In this document: piece by piece, positions 18,835-32,349 of the stretch | Layout: every line of letters begins with the position of its first letter | Numbering within the stretch: the stretch's first letter is position 1 | DNA from: Candidatus Vogelbacteria bacterium | GTDB taxonomy: Bacteria; Patescibacteriota; Minisyncoccia; Phycocordibacterales; XYD1-FULL-46-19 | Assembly: GCA_903864935.1 (NCBI GenBank) | Contig: CAIPHT010000015.1 | Span: forward strand, 6,618-70,617 | Direction of reading: 5' to 3' | DNA: 64,000 nucleotides | Program-made: the position numbers and the translations under genes | Notes under the pieces: generated by a model | Seen by the model: the letters and a program-made list of their open reading frames with translations, nothing else | What the model was told of the DNA's origin: nothing | Databases searched by the model: none

Positions 18835-18905
18835 TGCCGGATCATCTAATGGTAGGATTCACCCCTCTGGAGGGTGCTATCTTGGTTCGAGTCCAAGTCC
18901 GGCAG
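18835..18905 (+). tRNA. tRNA-Gln (CUG)
   Basis: The U1-A72 start is typical of bacterial tRNA-Gln. Acceptor tgccgga/tccggca, anticodon loop CUCUGGA, T-loop TTCGAGT. Confidence 0.75.
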
Positions 18906-19006
18906 CAGCCAATTTTTAACGAGCGAAGCGACTATAAAAATTGAGCTTCCCGAGCATTTGCGAGGGACAGGATTTTTCAATGAGCACATTTTGACGAATA
19001 AAATTT

Positions 19007-19255
19007 ATGTATTTTGTCTATATCCTTGAATGTGCCGACGAGACCCTCTATGTTGGTTGTACCAATAATTTGGACAAGAGGTTGGAGCAACACAACAATT
19101 CCAAATCGGGCGCTCACTATACTAAGATCAGACGACCGGTAAGCTTGAAATATAAAGAAGTTTTTGAGACACTGAAAGAGGCTCGGGCGAGAGAAGCAGA
19201 GCTAAAAACTTGGCGAAGAGAGAAAAAATTAAATTTGTGCCTAACTGGAAAATAA
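19007..19255 (+). CDS. GIY-YIG nuclease superfamily protein (YhbQ/UPF0213-like, 82 aa)
   Basis: N-terminal YFVYILEC...[16 protein letters not shown] (GIY...YIG...R...E). It lies 100 nt downstream of tRNA-Gln. Confidence 0.75.
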
Positions 19256-19896: not shown

Positions 19897-20253
19897 ATGT
19901 TTATTAAGAAGACATATTTGGATAAATCGGCAATTCAGGGCATAGGGTTGTTTAGTGGAGAAGAAATTAAAAAGGGTGAACTGGTTTATAAACATTCGCC
20001 CAAGCTCCAGCAGGTTTTGACTCCCGAAGAATTAAATCTACTTGAGGAGGATGAGAAAAAAACTTTTACCCATTATGGATATCTCTGGGAAGGGAAATGG
20101 TATTTAGATTTTGATGATATAAGGTTTCTTAACCATGCTGACGAACCCAGCCTTGCTCTGACCCAAGAAGGTATTGTTGCCACGAGAGATATTGCCAAAG
20201 GGGAAGAATTAACTCAAGATTATAAAGACTTCGAAGATAAAATTAGATTTTAA
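19897..20253 (+). CDS. SET-domain protein (putative lysine methyltransferase)
   Basis: GIGLFSGEEIKKGELV ... RFLNHADEPS ... ELTQDY matches the SET motifs GxG, NH(S/A)xxPN and ELxxDY. Confidence 0.6.
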   Translation: MFIKKTYLDKSAIQGIGLFSGEEIKKGELVYKHSPKLQQVLTPEELNLLEEDEKKTFTHYGYLWEGKWYLDFDDIRFLNHADEPSLALTQEGIVATRDIAKGEELTQDYKDFEDKIRF

Positions 20254-20325
20254 AATTTTAGCCTGGAACGACTATTCTCATCTGGGATAAAACAAAAATC
20301 TAGTGTATACTGGACACGATAATTT

Positions 20326-20991
20326 ATGAAAGATAAAAAAGATAATAATCCAATCCCCCAAGAGATACGTTTTGCCGCTTTAGCGGTGGATATTGTTTGC
20401 TTCCGCGTTGCCGACGGGGATTTAGAAGTTCTCTTGGGAAAAGTCGCCACCGATAATAATAAATACAAGGGCTGGTGGGCTCATGTCGGGGGACTGGTCC
20501 AGATAGACGAGACAGCCGAACAAGCCGTTGATCGGTTATTGTCTGATAAGGCTGGTATTAACAAAATATACAAGGAACAACTTTATACCTTCAGCGCTAT
20601 CAATCGCGACCCCCGTGGCCGGGTTGTCTCGGTTGCCTACATTGCTCTAACTGACGGGACAAATACTCAAGACTTGGCCAAGGCTCGTGTCGAGACGGTG
20701 TGGAAGAGGGTGGGGAGCTTGCCCAAACTTGCCTATGATCACGACGAGATAATAAGAGTGGCCATTGAGCGTTTGCGATCTAAGATTATGTATACCGATA
20801 TTGCCCGCTATTTCATGCCTAAAGAGTTCACATTGTCTGAATTGCAAAAAGTCTATGAGGCCGTCACGGGGGAGGGGGTTGATAAAAGAAATTTTAGAAA
20901 GAGGATAATTGCTCTCGGTATTTTGAAGGATACCAGACGAACTATTAAGAAGGGGGTGATGCGACCAGCCTCCCTTTATACCTTTAAATAG
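20326..20991 (+). CDS. nrtR: NrtR-like Nudix-related transcriptional regulator of NAD metabolism
   Basis: N-terminal Nudix-fold domain followed by a C-terminal winged-helix domain. It sits directly upstream of nadV. Confidence 0.7.
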   Translation: MKDKKDNNPIPQEIRFAALAVDIVCFRVADGDLEVLLGKVATDNNKYKGWWAHVGGLVQIDETAEQAVDRLLSDKAGINKIYKEQLYTFSAINRDPRGRVVSVAYIALTDGTNTQDLAKARVETVWKRVGSLPKLAYDHDEIIRVAIERLRSKIMYTDIARYFMPKEFTLSELQKVYEAVTGEGVDKRNFRKRIIALGILKDTRRTIKKGVMRPASLYTFK

Positions 20992-21047
20992 CAACGTATT
21001 TTCGTCTTTTGCTGTCTTAAACTAGGCCCCTAATCGGGGTTTTATTT

Positions 21048-21115
21048 AGTGTACACTTGACACCAAATATCCCCTCGTATATAGTGTACTCAGAACACTA
21101 GGTACACTTCGTACC
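21048..21115 (+). promoter_or_regulatory. nadV promoter (TTGACA-N17-TATAGT) overlapped by three AGTGT/ACACT-type palindromes, candidate NrtR operators
   Basis: agtgtacact (21048-57), tagtgt-N7-acacta (21082-21100) and ggtac-acttc-gtacc (21101-15). A similar site agtgtatactggacac at 20302-17 lies upstream of nrtR. Confidence 0.45.
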
Positions 21116-21155
21116 TCAAATTTGGTCCTTTACAACTCACACAGGAGATACAGCC

Positions 21156-22565
21156 ATGTTGAAGAACATCTTGCTCATGACGGATTCCTACAAGGTTTCC
21201 CACTACCGCCAGTACCCGAAGGGTACCACCAAGATCTATTCGTATCTCGAGGCCCGCAAGGGTGGCGAGTACGCCGAAGTTATGTTCTTCGGTTTGCAAT
21301 ATCTGATCAAGCGTTATCTGTTGGGACAAGTTGTTACCCAGCAGAAGATTGATCAGGCCGAAGCCCTCTTCACGGCACACTTCGGTGATGCCAGCCTCTT
21401 CAATCGTGCTGGCTGGGAACACATTCTCAATGAGCACGACGGCAAGTTGCCGGTCGAGATCAAAGCGGTGCCCGAGGGAATGATTGTTCCCGAAGGCAAT
21501 GTGCTCTTGACCATCGAGAACACCTGCCCGGATTGTTACTGGCTGGTGAACTACCTCGAGACGCTCTTGGTGCAGGTCTGGTATAGTTGCACCACGGGCA
21601 CCATCTCGCGCGAGATGAAGAAGCTCATCAAGAACGCGCTGGTGAAGTCGGGAACCGACACTCCAGAGAACCTGGCGTTCAAGCTCCATGACTTCGGCTA
21701 TCGTGGTGTCAGCTCTTCGGAGTCGGCAGCTATCGGTGGCGCGGCCCATTTGGTCAACTTCATGGGTACCGACACTCTCGCAGCAATCGAAATGCTCATG
21801 GAGTACTACGGTGCGACGATGCCGGGCTTCAGTATCCCGGCGGCCGAGCACTCGACGATCACGACCTGGGGCGAAGAAGGGGAAGAGGCGGCATATCGCA
21901 ATATGCTTGACCAATATCCCACCGGCCTTGTCGCTGTGGTCTCGGATTCTTGGGATATCCGCAATGCGGTGGAGAACATTTGGGGCGATCGTCTTCGCAA
22001 CAAAATCATCTTCCGTGATGGGGTCCTCATTATCCGGCCTGACTCGGGCGATCCCATCAAGATCTTGCCCGAACTCTTCGAGAGTATCGGACGACGTTTT
22101 GGCACCACTACGAACGAGAAGGGTTACAAGGAGCTCCACAAGAAAGTTCGGGTCATTCAGGGCGACGGCATCAATCGCCGCAGCTTGGGAAAAATTCTCG
22201 ACGCACTGATGGAGCACGGTTGGTCGGTCGATGGCATTGCCTTCGGCTCTGGTGGTGGATTGTTGCAGAATTGCGATCGTGACACTCAACGTTTTGCGAT
22301 GAAGTGCTCCTACGCTGAAGTGAACGGTGTTGGGCGGGATGTCTACAAGCAGCCCGCCACCGACAAGACCAAGAACAGCAAACGGGGCCGGCTGATGCTC
22401 GTGGAGAACGCGATATTCGAGACCACTCACGGTTCGAGGTTCGCGACTTTACCCGAAGGCACCAAGGGCTTCACTGACATTCTCGTGACAGTCTTCAGAG
22501 ACGGCGAGTTGCTCTGTGATCAGACTCTTGATGAGATTCGGGTCAGGGCGGCGATCGCCTCCTGA
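21156..22565 (+). CDS. nadV: Nicotinamide phosphoribosyltransferase (NAMPT/NadV)
   Basis: N-terminus MLKNILLMTDSYKVSHYRQYP and overall type-II PRTase architecture. The GC content is high. Confidence 0.9.
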   Translation: MLKNILLMTDSYKVSHYRQYPKGTTKIYSYLEARKGGEYAEVMFFGLQYLIKRYLLGQVVTQQKIDQAEALFTAHFGDASLFNRAGWEHILNEHDGKLPVEIKAVPEGMIVPEGNVLLTIENTCPDCYWLVNYLETLLVQVWYSCTTGTISREMKKLIKNALVKSGTDTPENLAFKLHDFGYRGVSSSESAAIGGAAHLVNFMGTDTLAAIEMLMEYYGATMPGFSIPAAEHSTITTWGEEGEEAAYRNMLDQYPTGLVAVVSDSWDIRNAVENIWGDRLRNKIIFRDGVLIIRPDSGDPIKILPELFESIGRRFGTTTNEKGYKELHKKVRVIQGDGINRRSLGKILDALMEHGWSVDGIAFGSGGGLLQNCDRDTQRFAMKCSYAEVNGVGRDVYKQPATDKTKNSKRGRLMLVENAIFETTHGSRFATLPEGTKGFTDILVTVFRDGELLCDQTLDEIRVRAAIAS

Positions 22566-22643
22566 CGCAAGAGTTACAACCACAACGAGCCTCCGTATCC
22601 GACTTTGGGTGCGGAGGCTCAACTTATCTAAGGAAAAACCATC

Positions 22644-23357
22644 ATGAAAATAAGAATCAGAGATTATGAAGTTCCCGTTAGGGGTAAGAGCGTTCGCCTG
22701 GCGATTAAGTCTCACCTCTTCAAAAAGTGGATTGAGTCCCTCGACCCTCTCTTCATTGTTGTCGGTATTGAGATCCAATCTGTCGACACGGTGAAGCGCA
22801 AGGGGGAAGAGAAGGTTCTCTTTCTCAAGTTGAAGGCTGAGATTACTGACAAAACGGGACGGATTTACCCAGGAATCTTTTTTCTCCGGGGAGACTCCGT
22901 CGCCATTCTTGTCATTCTTGAGACGCCAGAGAAAAAATACGTCGTGGTCATCGAGAGTCATCTCCCTTCTATCGGCAAGAGGAATTCTCTTCAATTGCCA
23001 GCAGGGATGATGGATACCGAGACTGATGCTCTGCAAGTGGCCCTACGAGAGATGGAGGAGGAGACGGGTCTTAATCCGGCCCTTGGCCAGATGATTCATC
23101 TTGGTCACATCTATCCCTCTCCCGGTGCCTGTGACGAAGCGATCCATCTTTTTCTCTTTGAGGCAAAGATGAGTGAAGCTGAGGTCATGCTACTCCAAGG
23201 CACGACAACGGGTCTTGCGGAGGAAGGAGAACACCTTGTCGTTAAATTGGTGGAGCTCGACGAGCTTTGCCCCAAAACTCAAGACCCGAAGGCTCATTCA
23301 GCGCATATGCTATATTGTGCCTTGAAAATGAAAGGGAATTACCATGAAAACGATTGA
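22644..23357 (+). CDS. Nudix hydrolase (probable ADP-ribose pyrophosphatase)
   Basis: Nudix-box-like GMMDTETDALQVALREMEEETGL, in a nadV/NMNAT context. Confidence 0.55.
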   Translation: MKIRIRDYEVPVRGKSVRLAIKSHLFKKWIESLDPLFIVVGIEIQSVDTVKRKGEEKVLFLKLKAEITDKTGRIYPGIFFLRGDSVAILVILETPEKKYVVVIESHLPSIGKRNSLQLPAGMMDTETDALQVALREMEEETGLNPALGQMIHLGHIYPSPGACDEAIHLFLFEAKMSEAEVMLLQGTTTGLAEEGEHLVVKLVELDELCPKTQDPKAHSAHMLYCALKMKGNYHEND

Positions 23358-24477
23358 AGACAAAATTGCCGCTTTGCATGCCGGGAGGCTGAAGGTCTGC
23401 CTTGTTTGCACCGGAGCGGGAGCTGGCACTCAGAACCTGATTGCTCAAGTTCCCGGTGCCTCGAACACTTTGCTCGAATGTCTCTTCCCCTACAGTAAGG
23501 AATCACTGGCCGACTTTCTCGGTGCCGAGCCGGAGAAGTTTGCCTCTGAAGAAACAGCCATGAAGATGGCGGCCAGGGCCTGGCGAAGGGGGCAAGAACT
23601 CGTGGTGAGACAAGGTGGAGACGTTAGAGACGTTGTTGGCTTGGCCGTAACAGCGGTTATTGCCACCAATCGATCACTGCGTGGTGAGCACCGAGTCTTC
23701 ATTGCGGCCCGTACGGCCGGGGGATTCTTCGTCTCTCACGCTGGCTTCGCCAAAGGGGAAGACGGTCTCTCTGTTCTTGGCCGCAAGCGAGAAGGAGAAC
23801 TCTGCGATATCCTCACTCTCAACATGCTTCTCTACTTAGCGGGCATTGAGCCGGTAAACGTCCCAGAGGATGTGACCCTCTCTCCTCGTCAGGTGGAATA
23901 TCGGTTAGAGATTGACGAAGCGAAGTATTGTTTTGTTGAAGTTGATGGAACTCCGGCCGAGCTCTCCTCCCTCGATCCGAGCAAGCACGTTCTCTTTCCT
24001 GGTTCCTTCCGCCCGCTTCACTTTGGTCACGAGAAAATCGCCACTGAGGTGGAGAGTCTGGCTGGCAAGAAAGTTGTCTACATGATCACTAATTGTCACC
24101 CAGACAAAGGTGAAATCGAACGAGAAGAATTGCTCGGGCGCCTTGACCAGTTCAGATACGTGGCACCGGTTCTGGTGACGAACGATCTCAGCCTCTGCCT
24201 CGACAAGGCTAGAGCCTTCCCCGGCTTCAGCTTCATCATTGGCGCCGACACACTCAAGCGACTTCTTGACCCGAAGTATTACACGACAACGGTAGAGGAG
24301 GTTCTGGATGAGCTTCAACAACTTGGTGTTCACTTCTATGTTGCTGGTCGGCATGAGGGAGGTGAGGTAGTAGATCTGGAGACTCTGAGGGATATCATCC
24401 CGACACCGTTCTGGGGCTTGTTTACCCAGTTGGCCACTGTCATCCAAGTATCTTCTACTGATATACGAGGGGTGTGA
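23344..24477 (+). CDS. Bifunctional protein: CinA-C/PncC-like (NMN deamidase-like) N-domain fused to nicotinamide/nicotinate mononucleotide adenylyltransferase
   Basis: N-terminal LVCTGAGAGTQNLIAQVPGAS...YSKESLADFLGA resembles the PncC ESCTGG...YSNEAK pattern. The C-terminal FPGSFRPLHFGH carries the (H/T)xGH nucleotidyltransferase motif. Confidence 0.65.
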   Translation: MKTIEDKIAALHAGRLKVCLVCTGAGAGTQNLIAQVPGASNTLLECLFPYSKESLADFLGAEPEKFASEETAMKMAARAWRRGQELVVRQGGDVRDVVGLAVTAVIATNRSLRGEHRVFIAARTAGGFFVSHAGFAKGEDGLSVLGRKREGELCDILTLNMLLYLAGIEPVNVPEDVTLSPRQVEYRLEIDEAKYCFVEVDGTPAELSSLDPSKHVLFPGSFRPLHFGHEKIATEVESLAGKKVVYMITNCHPDKGEIEREELLGRLDQFRYVAPVLVTNDLSLCLDKARAFPGFSFIIGADTLKRLLDPKYYTTTVEEVLDELQQLGVHFYVAGRHEGGEVVDLETLRDIIPTPFWGLFTQLATVIQVSSTDIRGV

Positions 24478-24496
24478 GTTGAGAACACTAAAATCA

Positions 24497-24535
24497 CGGG
24501 TTGCGCCTACATATAGGCGCAACCCGTTTTCTTTT
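24497..24535 (+). terminator. Rho-independent terminator ending the NAD-salvage operon
   Basis: cgggttgcgcc-tacatata-ggcgcaacccg followed by ttttctttt. Confidence 0.7.
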
Positions 24536-29925: not shown

Positions 29926-30007
29926 GCCTTATTGGCGGACTTGACAGGCTTTTGGGTAGTTATTATAATCAAGAAAGTATTTTATTATTAATTAGTCACT
30001 AATTTAG

Positions 30008-31084
30008 ATGAAAAACAAAAAATTGTTATGGCTCGTGGTTGCTGTCATTATTATTGTTGTTCTCGTTATTATCTTTAAATCTTCTCCTGCTAAGACGGCT
30101 CTCACTTCTGAGTCCGGCACCTTCACCGTTGGGGCTGTCCTCCCTATGACTGGTCCGGCTGCTCTCTGGGGCGAGACGGTTAAGAACGGTATGGAGTTGG
30201 CTCTTGCTAAGAAGTCGGGGATTAAGGTCCTCTATGAGGATAGTAAGTCGACGGCCGCTGATGGTATCTCCGCTTATAATTTATTGCAGAGCAAGAAGGT
30301 AGATCTCACTGTCTCTGAATTATCTCTGGTGGCCGTTCCTCTCTCTAAGATTGCTCTTGAGACCAAAGCTCCACTCTTGGTTTCTCTTGTGGCCGCTAAA
30401 CATACCTCAATTGTTAATGATTATACAACTCGTTATTATACTAATCCGACTAACTATGCGACCCCCGCTTTTACCGATGCAATGTCTCCCGTTCTTAAGG
30501 CTAAGAAAATTGCTCTCCTTACTCGCAATGACGAACTCGGGATCTCTGTTCGTGACAAGATTAAAGAGTTAAGCTCTGCTAATGGCAAAGAGATTGTCTA
30601 CCAGGATTCTTTTGTTCCGGCTGAGAAGGATTATCGCACAACCCTCTTGAAGGCTAAGAACTCTGGTGCCGACGTCTTCATCTTTGTCGCTTCAACTCCG
30701 GGCGAAGCTCTGGGGATTGTAAAGACTGCCAGTGAGATTAAGCTTGGCATGCCAATTGTTGAGTCATCCGCTGTTTTTGCTGATCTGGCTACTCGCAAGC
30801 AGGCTGAAGGGATTTCTTTCTACGCTACTTCTTATGATTTTTCTCTCCCCGGCAAGGCTGAAGACTTCAAAACTAGTTATCTCGCCAAGTTTGGCAAGGA
30901 ACCGAATTTTGGTGCGGCCTTTGGTTATGACATGGTTAATCTGATTGATGTCTGTAAGGCTAAGAAAGAAGCGGTTCGAGATTGTCTCTCTGGAGTCAAA
31001 CAACTCGAAGGTGTTGCTGGTGTTGCCACTCAAGTTGAAGCCGGTGACTTTGTTGTCCCAATGCATCTAGAGAAAGTAAACTAA
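30008..31084 (+). CDS. Periplasmic-binding-protein type I (LivK-like, branched-chain amino acid binding family) with an N-terminal membrane anchor
   Basis: GAVLPMTGPAALWGETVKNGMELA is a typical Leu/Ile/Val-binding-protein start. Confidence 0.7.
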   Translation: MKNKKLLWLVVAVIIIVVLVIIFKSSPAKTALTSESGTFTVGAVLPMTGPAALWGETVKNGMELALAKKSGIKVLYEDSKSTAADGISAYNLLQSKKVDLTVSELSLVAVPLSKIALETKAPLLVSLVAAKHTSIVNDYTTRYYTNPTNYATPAFTDAMSPVLKAKKIALLTRNDELGISVRDKIKELSSANGKEIVYQDSFVPAEKDYRTTLLKAKNSGADVFIFVASTPGEALGIVKTASEIKLGMPIVESSAVFADLATRKQAEGISFYATSYDFSLPGKAEDFKTSYLAKFGKEPNFGAAFGYDMVNLIDVCKAKKEAVRDCLSGVKQLEGVAGVATQVEAGDFVVPMHLEKVN

Positions 31085-31112
31085 GTTTCAAAAGTTTTAA
31101 GTATAAAAAGTA

Positions 31113-31142
31113 AAGCGCCTCGGGTCGAAACCCGGGGCGCTT
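31113..31142 (-). terminator. Hairpin terminator serving the minus-strand high-GC gene, with a T-tract on the minus strand
   Basis: aagcgcc-tcgggtcgaaacccgg-ggcgctt. The minus strand continues with tactttttatac. Confidence 0.5.
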
Positions 31143-31183
31143 GTCGAATGTTGGGAACGTGGACAGTACTTGTTGCGGAGGGC

Positions 31184-32200
31184 CTAGGCCTTCTTGCCTT
31201 CGGACTCCGGCGGGGTGGCCTCGTCTTCGGGTTTGACCAACTTTGTGACCTCGGCGAGGAGCTCAAGCAATGAGTCGCGGGCATCGCTGGCGTCGTTGAT
31301 GCGCTCGGCGAGCCCCTCGAGGTCCTTGCGGTAGGTCCTGATGTTGTCCTCGAGGCTGTTGCCCTCGGAGTCCTCTTCGATGTTGTCGAGGAGATCCCCG
31401 ATTTCCTTCTTGAGGGCGTCGATGGCTTGGAAGGCCCCGTAGATGCCGGTGTCGTTGTCATCCAACGCGACGGCACGGGCTTTGAGGGCCTCGAACTTGG
31501 CCTTCAACTCTTCGGCTGGGCCCATGAGTTTCTCTGCGGCTTCGATACTCGCCTTGTGGTCGGCGAAGTATCCGTTTATGCGGTTATACTTGGCCTTGGC
31601 GTCATTATCTCCCTCGTCTTCGAGGTTGGACAGGCCTTTGCGAATTTCGTCATCGACATTGTCGGCGTCAGACAGAGCCTGGTCGCGCAATCTCCGGGCT
31701 TCTTGCAACCGGTTGACTCGATTCTTGATTTCCTCTTGCCTGGCCACGAGTTCCTCAACTTGCCGCATTTGTTCATCGTGACCCAAGTTGGCTTTCTCGA
31801 ATTGCTCCGTTCTGGCTAGCTGGTCGGCCAGCGAGAGTTTGAGTTCTCCCACTTTGTGGGCGGGACTTTCTTCTTTGAGACCCTCCATAACTTGTTCAAT
31901 CTCTCTCCCTGTCCGGCCACTTTTGTTGAGCATGTAGTCGGTACTTGCTCTCCAGTCTCTCAGCTTGATGTTTTCCTGGACCAGCTCGCGTTTTTTGTAA
32001 GCTTGGACCAGGGAAATGAGCAGGATAGCCACGAGACTTAAGGCTATGGCACCGGCGCAGCGTTTGTCCAGATCGGTCGGGTTGTTGGCGACCATTTCGA
32101 CAACGTTGTCGTTTTGGTGGAGTGATACGCGGGGGGTTGTGGCAATGACAACCAAACTCCCCACCACAAAAATCAAAAACAGCAATTTCACAAGGTTCAT
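31184..32200 (-). CDS. Membrane-anchored coiled-coil protein (339 aa) in a high-GC island
   Basis: The start was set at MNLVKLLFLIFVV, preceded by GAGGGAG. The protein carries long acidic coiled-coil segments and has about 55% GC. Confidence 0.5.
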   Translation of the reverse strand: MNLVKLLFLIFVVGSLVVIATTPRVSLHQNDNVVEMVANNPTDLDKRCAGAIALSLVAILLISLVQAYKKRELVQENIKLRDWRASTDYMLNKSGRTGREIEQVMEGLKEESPAHKVGELKLSLADQLARTEQFEKANLGHDEQMRQVEELVARQEEIKNRVNRLQEARRLRDQALSDADNVDDEIRKGLSNLEDEGDNDAKAKYNRINGYFADHKASIEAAEKLMGPAEELKAKFEALKARAVALDDNDTGIYGAFQAIDALKKEIGDLLDNIEEDSEGNSLEDNIRTYRKDLEGLAERINDASDARDSLLELLAEVTKLVKPEDEATPPESEGKKA

Positions 32201-32349
32201 CTGACGTTCTCCCTCATTTTTTCCGCCGGAGCGGAACAAGTTTTCCTGAGCGGAATGCCCAGGTCTGGGCATACATATAGCACTAAAGGTAAGGGGTGTC
32301 AATGGCTACTTCTTGCTATTTTTTAAGAATAGTGATATAATTAGAATAT

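Follow-up and report, generated by a model that had tools for sequence, protein, structure and literature searches.

A stretch of 64,000 nucleotides from contig CAIPHT010000015.1 of a Candidatus Vogelbacteria bacterium, referred to below as the window, probably contains a self-contained and repressor-gated cassette for the non-deamidating salvage of nicotinamide adenine dinucleotide (NAD) in a Paceibacterota genome of the candidate phyla radiation (CPR). The CTP synthase of the host agrees with this placement, as all of its named top hits belong to Paceibacterota, Vogelbacteria or Patescibacteria. The cassette consists of four co-directional genes. These encode an NrtR-family regulator (nrtR), a nicotinamide phosphoribosyltransferase (nadV), a Nudix hydrolase and a fusion protein, in which a PncC-like N-terminal domain is joined to a NadD-like adenylyltransferase domain. 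Searches of Pfam and NCBIfam bear out these four identities, which an earlier note had read from the DNA. An NrtR-type repressor with predicted operators on the nadV promoter and ahead of its own gene, as that note proposed, is strongly supported by the positions of the sites and by the core they share with known operators of the family.

The whole window was searched for AGTGT-N7-ACACT with at most one mismatch. Only three matches were found (starting at 20302, 21048 and 21083), all of which lie in two intergenic regions. Shuffled sequence gives an expectation of 1.0 match per 64 kb and of ∼0.004 in the 236 intergenic bases, where the Poisson probability of three or more matches is ∼1e-8. Each operator is a 17-bp core, AGTGT-N7-ACAC(T/C/G), within a 21-bp palindrome. 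Operators O1 and O2 occupy the nadV promoter, with O2 overlapping the -10 hexamer and the expected transcription start, while operator O_R ends 6 bp ahead of the nrtR ATG and holds a possible -10 (TATACT). The AGTGT/ACACT half-sites that had been noticed over the -35 and -10, and the related site ahead of nrtR, are thus confirmed. They do not form the three short palindromes initially described, as the half-sites pair across a 7-bp spacer in 21-bp sites.

Relatives carrying the same four-gene cassette were compared from five further lineages (L006/7; L008/9, a Pacebacteria metagenome-assembled genome; L010/11; L092; L096). Their fusion proteins are between 82% and 51% identical to that of the window. 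All five have an O1 that carries TTGACA and an O2 that overlaps TATAGT, and in a five-lineage alignment the invariant columns are located in both operator boxes and both promoter hexamers. In L092, O1 is identical to that of the window although the proteins are only 52-74% identical. The site just ahead of nrtR is found in L006, L008, L010 and L096, whose NrtR proteins are 57-91% identical to the one described here, and not in L092. In the comparison with L006, the nrtR-nadV spacer is 94% identical, as against 63-75% for the third codon positions of the flanking genes. The extended palindrome of O2 is perfect in L010. Finally, the sequence TAGTGT-N7-ACAC is present at the seven loci with the cassette and absent from 84 unrelated loci. 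The short palindrome AGTGTACACT was also considered as an operator and rejected, since L008 and L010 retain the N7-spaced sites but not this palindrome.

A scan of the window and the cassette loci with a position weight matrix, aimed at further regulon members, returned nothing else that scored 10 bits or more except for one weak match inside a gene in L010. Since the matrix was built from the same sites, the independent tests are the pattern search in the window and the 84-locus comparison. A third operator was seen upstream of O1 in L010 (3617-3637) and L008 (3693-3713), spaced by ∼41-42 bp from centre to centre. In L010 it is embedded in an inverted repeat (GGGAA/TTCCC) with a T-run after it, apparently the nrtR terminator.

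The nrtR product matches the Pfam winged-helix domain NrtR_WHD (PF21906) at 3.9e-22 (78.6 bits, cut-off 27) and NUDIX at 6e-11. Its closest solved relatives are BtAraR (BT0354; PDB 5BS6/5DDG; 5e-39) and then NrtR of Shewanella oneidensis (SoNrtR; 9e-26). For the NrtR family, Rodionov et al. (2008, PMC2330246) describe palindromic operators of 21 bp that share a conserved GT-N7-AC core. All three sites of the window carry this core, so that the comparison with the known NrtR box consensus is positive. The agreement with BtAraR goes further. The operators used for this protein in electrophoretic mobility shift assays and crystallisation, AGTGTATTTGATACAC, AGTGTTACTTTTACAC and AGTGTAAAAAAGACACT, have the core AGTGT-N7-ACAC, and its authors describe DNA contacts that define a GTGT motif (PMC4666351). 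The window sites share the AGTGT-N7-ACAC core, and the recognition helix DKRNFRKR is identical in both proteins. Among the DNA-contact residues of BtAraR, K179, R180, N181, K184 and R205 are kept, the wing arginine included, while K204 is replaced by Met. Because the helix, most contact residues and the operator core match those of BtAraR, the predicted binding rests on more than pattern matching. BtAraR likewise uses tandem sites on one promoter. SoNrtR differs from both in its recognition helix (QGKSFRRR), and the half-site in the window, TAGTGT, departs from that of SoNrtR as well.

What the regulator senses is less directly indicated. Its Nudix box reads G-x5-E-x7-RLLSDKAGI, meaning that the REUxEE signature is lost and the box is degenerate and inactive. 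In SoNrtR, ADP is contacted by N43, K76 and R98; in BtAraR these positions are F36, L67 and G89, which fill the ADP pocket (PMC4666351, from which the SoNrtR contact residues were taken). The regulator of the window has N44, K75 and R97 at the corresponding positions and keeps the ribose contacts R94 and H139. Phe15 of SoNrtR aligns to Ile14, and Tyr10 lies outside the alignment. Based on the conserved contact residues of the pocket, we regard ADP-ribose as the most likely effector.

Several observations weigh against this assignment. The nrtR product scores 133 bits against the equivalog cut-off of 400 for the NCBIfam model NF050029 (NtrR) and is thus, judged by its domain content, a member of the NrtR family rather than an equivalog of the modelled protein. 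Its nearest solved relative, BtAraR, senses L-arabinose, not ADP-ribose, and controls sugar genes. Arg41 of SoNrtR aligns to Thr42, in a loop with a two-residue insertion, and so has no counterpart here. Effectors are also known to vary among NrtR-family members (PMC4666351). The regulator might therefore respond to another ligand, for instance to NAD like NdnR of Corynebacterium or to a pentose like BtAraR, which would leave the rest of the model unchanged. We consider this unlikely, as precisely the positions with which BtAraR fills its pocket hold the SoNrtR residues in the window, and the target operon is one of NAD salvage that includes a Nudix gene of the ADP-ribose type.

The promoter named in the earlier note was recovered by a promoter scan (Table 1). 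Together with the terminators after nrtR and after the fusion gene, it makes nrtR a transcription unit of its own and nadV, the Nudix gene and the fusion gene an operon. Within this operon, the start codon of the fusion gene lies 14 nt ahead of the Nudix stop codon. As read from the sequence of the sister locus L006, the position of the nrtR terminator is taken there too by a hairpin with a T-run, whose stem sequence has changed. A further hairpin, which separates nadV from the Nudix gene, is shared by six cassette lineages. Compensatory changes affect 6 of its 15 pairs, and no clean U-run comes after it. It could be a partial terminator that lowers downstream expression, or a stabiliser of the nadV mRNA end. 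No riboswitch was found in the nadV leader with Rfam, even at E≤1. The long open reading frame (ORF) opposite nadV, which had been called spurious from the start, has no Pfam match and faces a strongly supported nadV; it can be explained as a by-product of the nadV frame, which is rich in GC at third codon positions (GC3).

Table 1. Features of the cassette, with positions in the window, and base composition of its genes (z, deviation of GC3; the GC content of the window is 44.6%).
Feature	Position	Strand	GC (%)	GC3	z	Description and basis
Operator O_R	20300-20320					CTAGTGTATACTGGACACGAT; ahead of nrtR; pattern search
nrtR	20326-20991	+	45.9	0.500	0.7	Nudix-like effector domain (degenerate Nudix box) and NrtR winged-helix domain
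nrtR intrinsic terminator	21024-21042	+				CCCC/GGGG stem, then T-run; terminator scan
Operator O1	21046-21066					TTAGTGTACACTTGACACCAA; right half includes the -35 hexamer TTGACA
nadV operon promoter	21057-21085	+				sigma-70-type, TTGACA-N17-TATAGT; 11/12 consensus match; promoter scan
Operator O2, core	21081-21101					ATAGTGTACTCAGAACACTAG; pattern and palindrome search
Operator O2, 29-bp palindrome	21077-21105					pattern and palindrome search
Antisense ORF	21090-22430	-				446 aa, opposite nadV; ORF list
nadV	21156-22565	+	55.1	0.711	3.3	nicotinamide phosphoribosyltransferase; Pfam, NCBIfam; GC3 rank 1 of 60 ORFs
nadV/Nudix intergenic hairpin	22587-22620	+				15 bp; dG -30.5 kcal/mol, z of the hairpin -5.8
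Nudix hydrolase gene	22644-23357	+	48.5	0.538	1.2	237 aa; most likely ADP-ribose pyrophosphatase
Fusion gene	23344-24477	+	53.6	0.566	1.5	377 aa; PncC-like N-domain and NadD-like adenylyltransferase
Operon-end intrinsic terminator	24496-24527	+				strong; 14-bp stem, then T-run; terminator scan

The nadV product is matched by NAMPT_N (PF18127, 4e-43) and NAPRTase (PF04095, 3e-53) and scores 613 bits with the NCBIfam model PRK09198 (cut-off 405). In the Nudix protein, the box GMMDTETDALQVALREMEEETG has intact catalytic glutamates (RE..EE.G, here REMEEETG) with a spacing of G-x4-E-x8 instead of G-x5-E-x7. Among PDB entries it comes closest to ADP-ribose pyrophosphatases (1V8I, 5e-8), and the alignment extends to the SPG loop after the box, where YPSPG is paired with FVSPG. 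The score with TIGR00052 is 39.8, below the cut-off of 79.55. From these matches, the protein is most likely an ADP-ribose pyrophosphatase.

The fusion protein was modelled by AlphaFold2 with a confidence (pLDDT) of 94. Residues ∼1-166 form a PncC/CinA-like domain, for which Foldseek matches 6MR3, 2A9S and 5KOL (E 2e-6 to 5e-5; template modelling score at most 0.70 on the target, and ∼0.7 to 2A9S, the Agrobacterium protein). Its Pfam CinA score (PF02464) is 19.4 bits, below the gathering threshold of 23.5. Residues ∼213-377 form a Rossmann-type nucleotidyltransferase fold, for which Foldseek returns NadD structures and Pfam a cytidylyltransferase-like match. Here the motifs H226-F-G-H229, H-P-D-K255 and S370-S371-T-D-I-R375 are present, corresponding to the HxGH, PPHK-like and ISSTxxR motifs of NadD (B. 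subtilis 1KAM, E. faecium 8AIH). Across 48 homologues, H226, G228, H229, K255 and S371 never vary, and the motifs are otherwise nearly invariant. Unlike NadD, the domain is short (∼165 aa), ends directly after SSTDIR and is only ∼20-23% identical to these enzymes, far below equivalog cut-offs. The substrate predicted from its gene context is nicotinamide mononucleotide (NMN).

The N-terminal domain had been described as resembling a PncC-type NMN deamidase. CinA of A. tumefaciens uses a Ser/Lys dyad (S31/K63) and binding residues S48, Y58, T105 and R145; the mutants S31A, K63A and R145A are inactive (PMC5384747). Three alignment methods (HMMER, hhalign and MAFFT) place the catalytic lysine (At K63, Ec K61) at Leu55 of the fusion protein, and in 48 of 48 aligned homologues this column is Leu, Met or Ile. 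With the catalytic lysine absent, deamidation by this domain is unlikely. In contrast, Y50, S40 and R147 align to phosphate-binding residues of PncC/CinA, and the VPGAS, PY and Arg positions are kept. Judged from these residues, the domain is most likely a non-deamidating NMN-binding module that feeds or regulates the adenylyltransferase domain. It thus shares its fold with PncC/CinA (E. coli YgaD; A. tumefaciens 2A9S), and differs in the loss of the lysine, in a serine nucleophile that is not conserved and in being fused to an adenylyltransferase.

A deamidating route would run differently. Here, the PncC-like domain would convert NMN to nicotinic acid mononucleotide (NaMN), the NadD-like domain would produce nicotinic acid adenine dinucleotide, and a NadE encoded elsewhere would finish NAD. 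The NadV-PncC-NadD route of Shewanella offers a parallel, databases name relatives of the fusion protein 'NMN deamidase PncC' or 'CinA family', and Y50, S40 and R147, which hold the substrate, are retained. The C-terminal domain resembles NadD enzymes, for which NaMN is usually the preferred substrate, and only the gene context points to NMN. Further points count against the non-deamidating reading as well. NadD equivalog models are weak on the C-terminal domain (TIGR00482, 25 against 112; PRK00071 models, ∼20 against 150-240), which passes only the generic TIGR00125 (28.6 against 27.7). The position of the catalytic serine (At S31, Ec S29) is ambiguous, falling on Val21 with hhalign or Thr23 with MAFFT. 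A relocated active site in the N-terminal domain is possible, for which the near-invariant K137, H116 and R117 could in principle be used. A nadE or nadD gene could lie outside the window, and most of the distant members of the fusion family do not adjoin nadV.

On the other side, the lysine column is Leu, Met or Ile throughout, and exchange of this lysine for alanine inactivates the Agrobacterium enzyme (PMC5384747). Neither candidate column for the nucleophile holds a conserved serine, one being Val and the other a Thr that is Ala in several homologues. The CinA domain score stays under its threshold, and nadE is absent from the cassette in six of six lineages. Given this balance, the deamidating route appears improbable, and the non-deamidating salvage cassette is the reading that we retain.

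Under this reading, the cassette can be compared with two known arrangements. In S. oneidensis, NrtR controls prs-nadV (Rodionov et al. 2008, PMC2330246). As in that regulon, a repressor with a Nudix-like and a winged-helix domain is encoded beside nadV, 21-bp GT-N7-AC palindromes lie on the promoter and the ADP-ribose-contacting residues N43, K76 and R98 of SoNrtR are conserved. Unlike in Shewanella, the host is a CPR bacterium and the regulated operon is nadV-nudix-(PncC-like/NMN adenylyltransferase) rather than prs-nadV. The second arrangement provides the enzymatic parallel. Non-deamidating salvage through NadV and NadM-Nudix proteins occurs in Synechocystis (slr0787), Francisella and Acinetobacter, and NadV/NatV is also found in phages. 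The predicted reactions are the same, namely nicotinamide to NMN, NMN to NAD, and hydrolysis of ADP-ribose. The window differs in that the Nudix enzyme is encoded by a gene of its own and that a NadD-like adenylyltransferase, fused to the PncC-like domain, stands in for the archaeal NadM type.

We propose the following working of the cassette. The NrtR dimer would bind the 21-bp palindromes, whose positions and conservation are observed. At O1 on the -35 and O2 on the -10 and transcription start, it would keep RNA polymerase off the nadV promoter, and at O_R over the nrtR start region it would repress its own gene. Such autorepression is known for the NrtR of M. smegmatis (PMC6800001). Consumption of NAD would bring ADP-ribose, or a closely related breakdown product of NAD, into the dead Nudix pocket, as the conserved contact residues suggest, and NrtR would leave the DNA. 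NadV would then form NMN from nicotinamide and phosphoribosyl pyrophosphate. The PncC-like domain would most likely bind NMN via its Tyr, Ser and Arg residues without deamidating it and feed or regulate the NadD-like domain, which would adenylate NMN to NAD. The Nudix enzyme would split ADP-ribose into AMP and ribose-5-phosphate, so that the ribose phosphate is recycled and the inducer removed.

The cassette had also been described as a high-GC island of three genes at 55-58% GC, horizontally acquired, with a possible link to phages. Only nadV falls within this range. The fusion gene and, more clearly, the Nudix gene lie below it (Table 1), and nrtR is close to the window as a whole, in keeping with the genome-typical GC that had been stated. 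On GC3, nadV ranks first in the window, while the fusion gene is marginal, being raised mainly at first codon positions and in total GC, and the Nudix gene and nrtR are ordinary. In synonymous codon usage, nadV and the fusion gene deviate from the window mean by only ∼1.5 standard deviations (likelihood z ∼-1.5). The GC3 of nadV exceeds that of its neighbours in L006, L008 and L010 and is level with its surroundings in the 51%-GC contig L092; of five lineages, four have a nadV that is richer in GC3 than the host.

Is the cassette then a recently acquired island, possibly derived from a phage? The nadV outlier, which recurs in three relatives, would fit this, as would the unrelated genomic contexts of the cassette in different lineages and the presence of NadV homologues in 2,019 phage records. 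However, Peptidase_S51 and GrpB genes border the cassette in the sister contig L006 just as they do in the window, with flanking proteins 74-92% and cassette proteins 82-95% identical to those of the window. This synteny implies vertical inheritance since the split of the two, so that any transfer must be old. At the borders of the cassette we found no bracketing direct repeats, no integrase or mobility genes and no adjacent tRNA; the nearest one, tRNA-Gln, is 1.4 kb and three genes away, with Peptidase_S51 and SET-domain genes intervening. A recent phage origin of nadV was rejected, as phage NadVs are at most 52% identical to that of the window and bacterial ones 60-67%, and no relative of the fusion protein was found in IMG/VR. 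Recent acquisition is hence an unlikely explanation of the composition, whose deviation does not extend to the Nudix gene and nrtR. What remains of the proposal is nadV as an outlier and an older transfer of the cassette from a GC-richer relative. Such a transfer is plausible, given that the cassette is rare, that its context changes from lineage to lineage and that nadV is mostly GC3-rich, and would predate the split from the sister genome. Alternatively, the GC3 of nadV could reflect constraint on a very conserved gene.

Directly upstream of nrtR, a 118-aa SET-domain gene (19897-20253) takes the place of alpha/beta hydrolase and histidine phosphatase genes in L006 (1441-2950), indicating that this junction has been remodelled. 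Further upstream (18835-19255; 1.1-1.4 kb from the cassette), the tRNA-Gln is followed by a gene for a stand-alone GIY-YIG nuclease (82 aa). The stretch 29926-32349 has no counterpart in L006, in which the genes for the GDSL lipase and zf_Tbcl_2 lie side by side. It holds a periplasmic-binding-protein gene (30008-31084) and a minus-strand ORF (31184-32272) with a GC3 of 0.69 and no Pfam match. Recent acquisition is more credible for this stretch than for the nadV cassette.

The fusion protein had been considered an unusual architecture. A profile search of 1.84 billion representatives instead places it in a large family, with at least 2,535 clusters (at 50% identity) at E≤1e-30; of the best 150, nearly all are full-length (370-430 aa). 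In a scan of GTDB species genomes, 236 relatives were confirmed by tblastn. The best 80 of these 236 loci come from Chloroflexota, SAR86, Planctomycetota, Myxococcota, Uhrbacteria and others. Linkage of the fusion gene with nadV is seen in six CPR lineages. Outside this clade the two genes seldom adjoin, L047 (nrtR-nadV-fusion), L111 and L155 being independent exceptions. The neighbours of distant family members were examined for conserved genes, and none were clearly NAD-related. In the sources, the relatives carry the labels CinA family or PncC, and a literature search found no paper describing a fusion of PncC-like and adenylyltransferase domains. The cyanobacterial NMNAT-C is apparently a different enzyme, which stands alone and has its catalytic His16/His19 at the N-terminus.

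Several members of the family attracted attention. In 9-12 of the Chloroflexota loci among L012-L091, small genes resembling NADH dehydrogenase subunits A, B and C follow the fusion gene, as judged by eye. The uncultured huge phage LR745208.1 (485 kb; L095, 5926-7077) encodes a 383-aa homologue with 33% identity; no NadV lies within 6 kb of it, and an ATP-dependent DNA ligase gene is located 2 kb downstream. Member P0369 (885 aa) has an extra N-terminal region of 486 residues without a Pfam match. Its two HMMER-matched stretches may reflect a tandem duplication. The idea that P0369 is a Rosetta-stone fusion with NadV was rejected, as the NAMPT domain is absent.

We tentatively suggest, as a possibility that falls a little short of likely, that the fusion proteins form a large and unrecognised class of NAD-forming adenylyltransferases. 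In these, a catalytically dead PncC domain would bind NMN and either pass it on to a minimal NadD-like domain or gate that domain allosterically. Members occur in Patescibacteria, Chloroflexota, SAR86, Planctomycetota and Myxococcota, and at least one huge phage also encodes such a protein. In many lineages the class might be the main NMN/NaMN adenylyltransferase, at present wrongly labelled 'NMN deamidase PncC' or 'CinA family protein'. This uncharacterised and probably mis-annotated adenylyltransferase family is the most interesting point of the locus. Thousands of proteins named PncC/CinA are without the deamidase lysine and contain an adenylyltransferase domain, which makes this an annotation problem at the level of the family. 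Metabolic reconstructions that read such proteins as deamidases would infer the wrong route to NAD.

For the organism itself, the regulatory prediction specifies the operators, the helix that would read them and a probable effector, and predictions of this kind are scarce for these uncultured bacteria. CPR bacteria, or Patescibacteria, are thought to depend on scavenged building blocks. If the proposed model is true, a CPR bacterium could rebuild NAD from nicotinamide alone, through a pathway that is switched on by a breakdown product of NAD.

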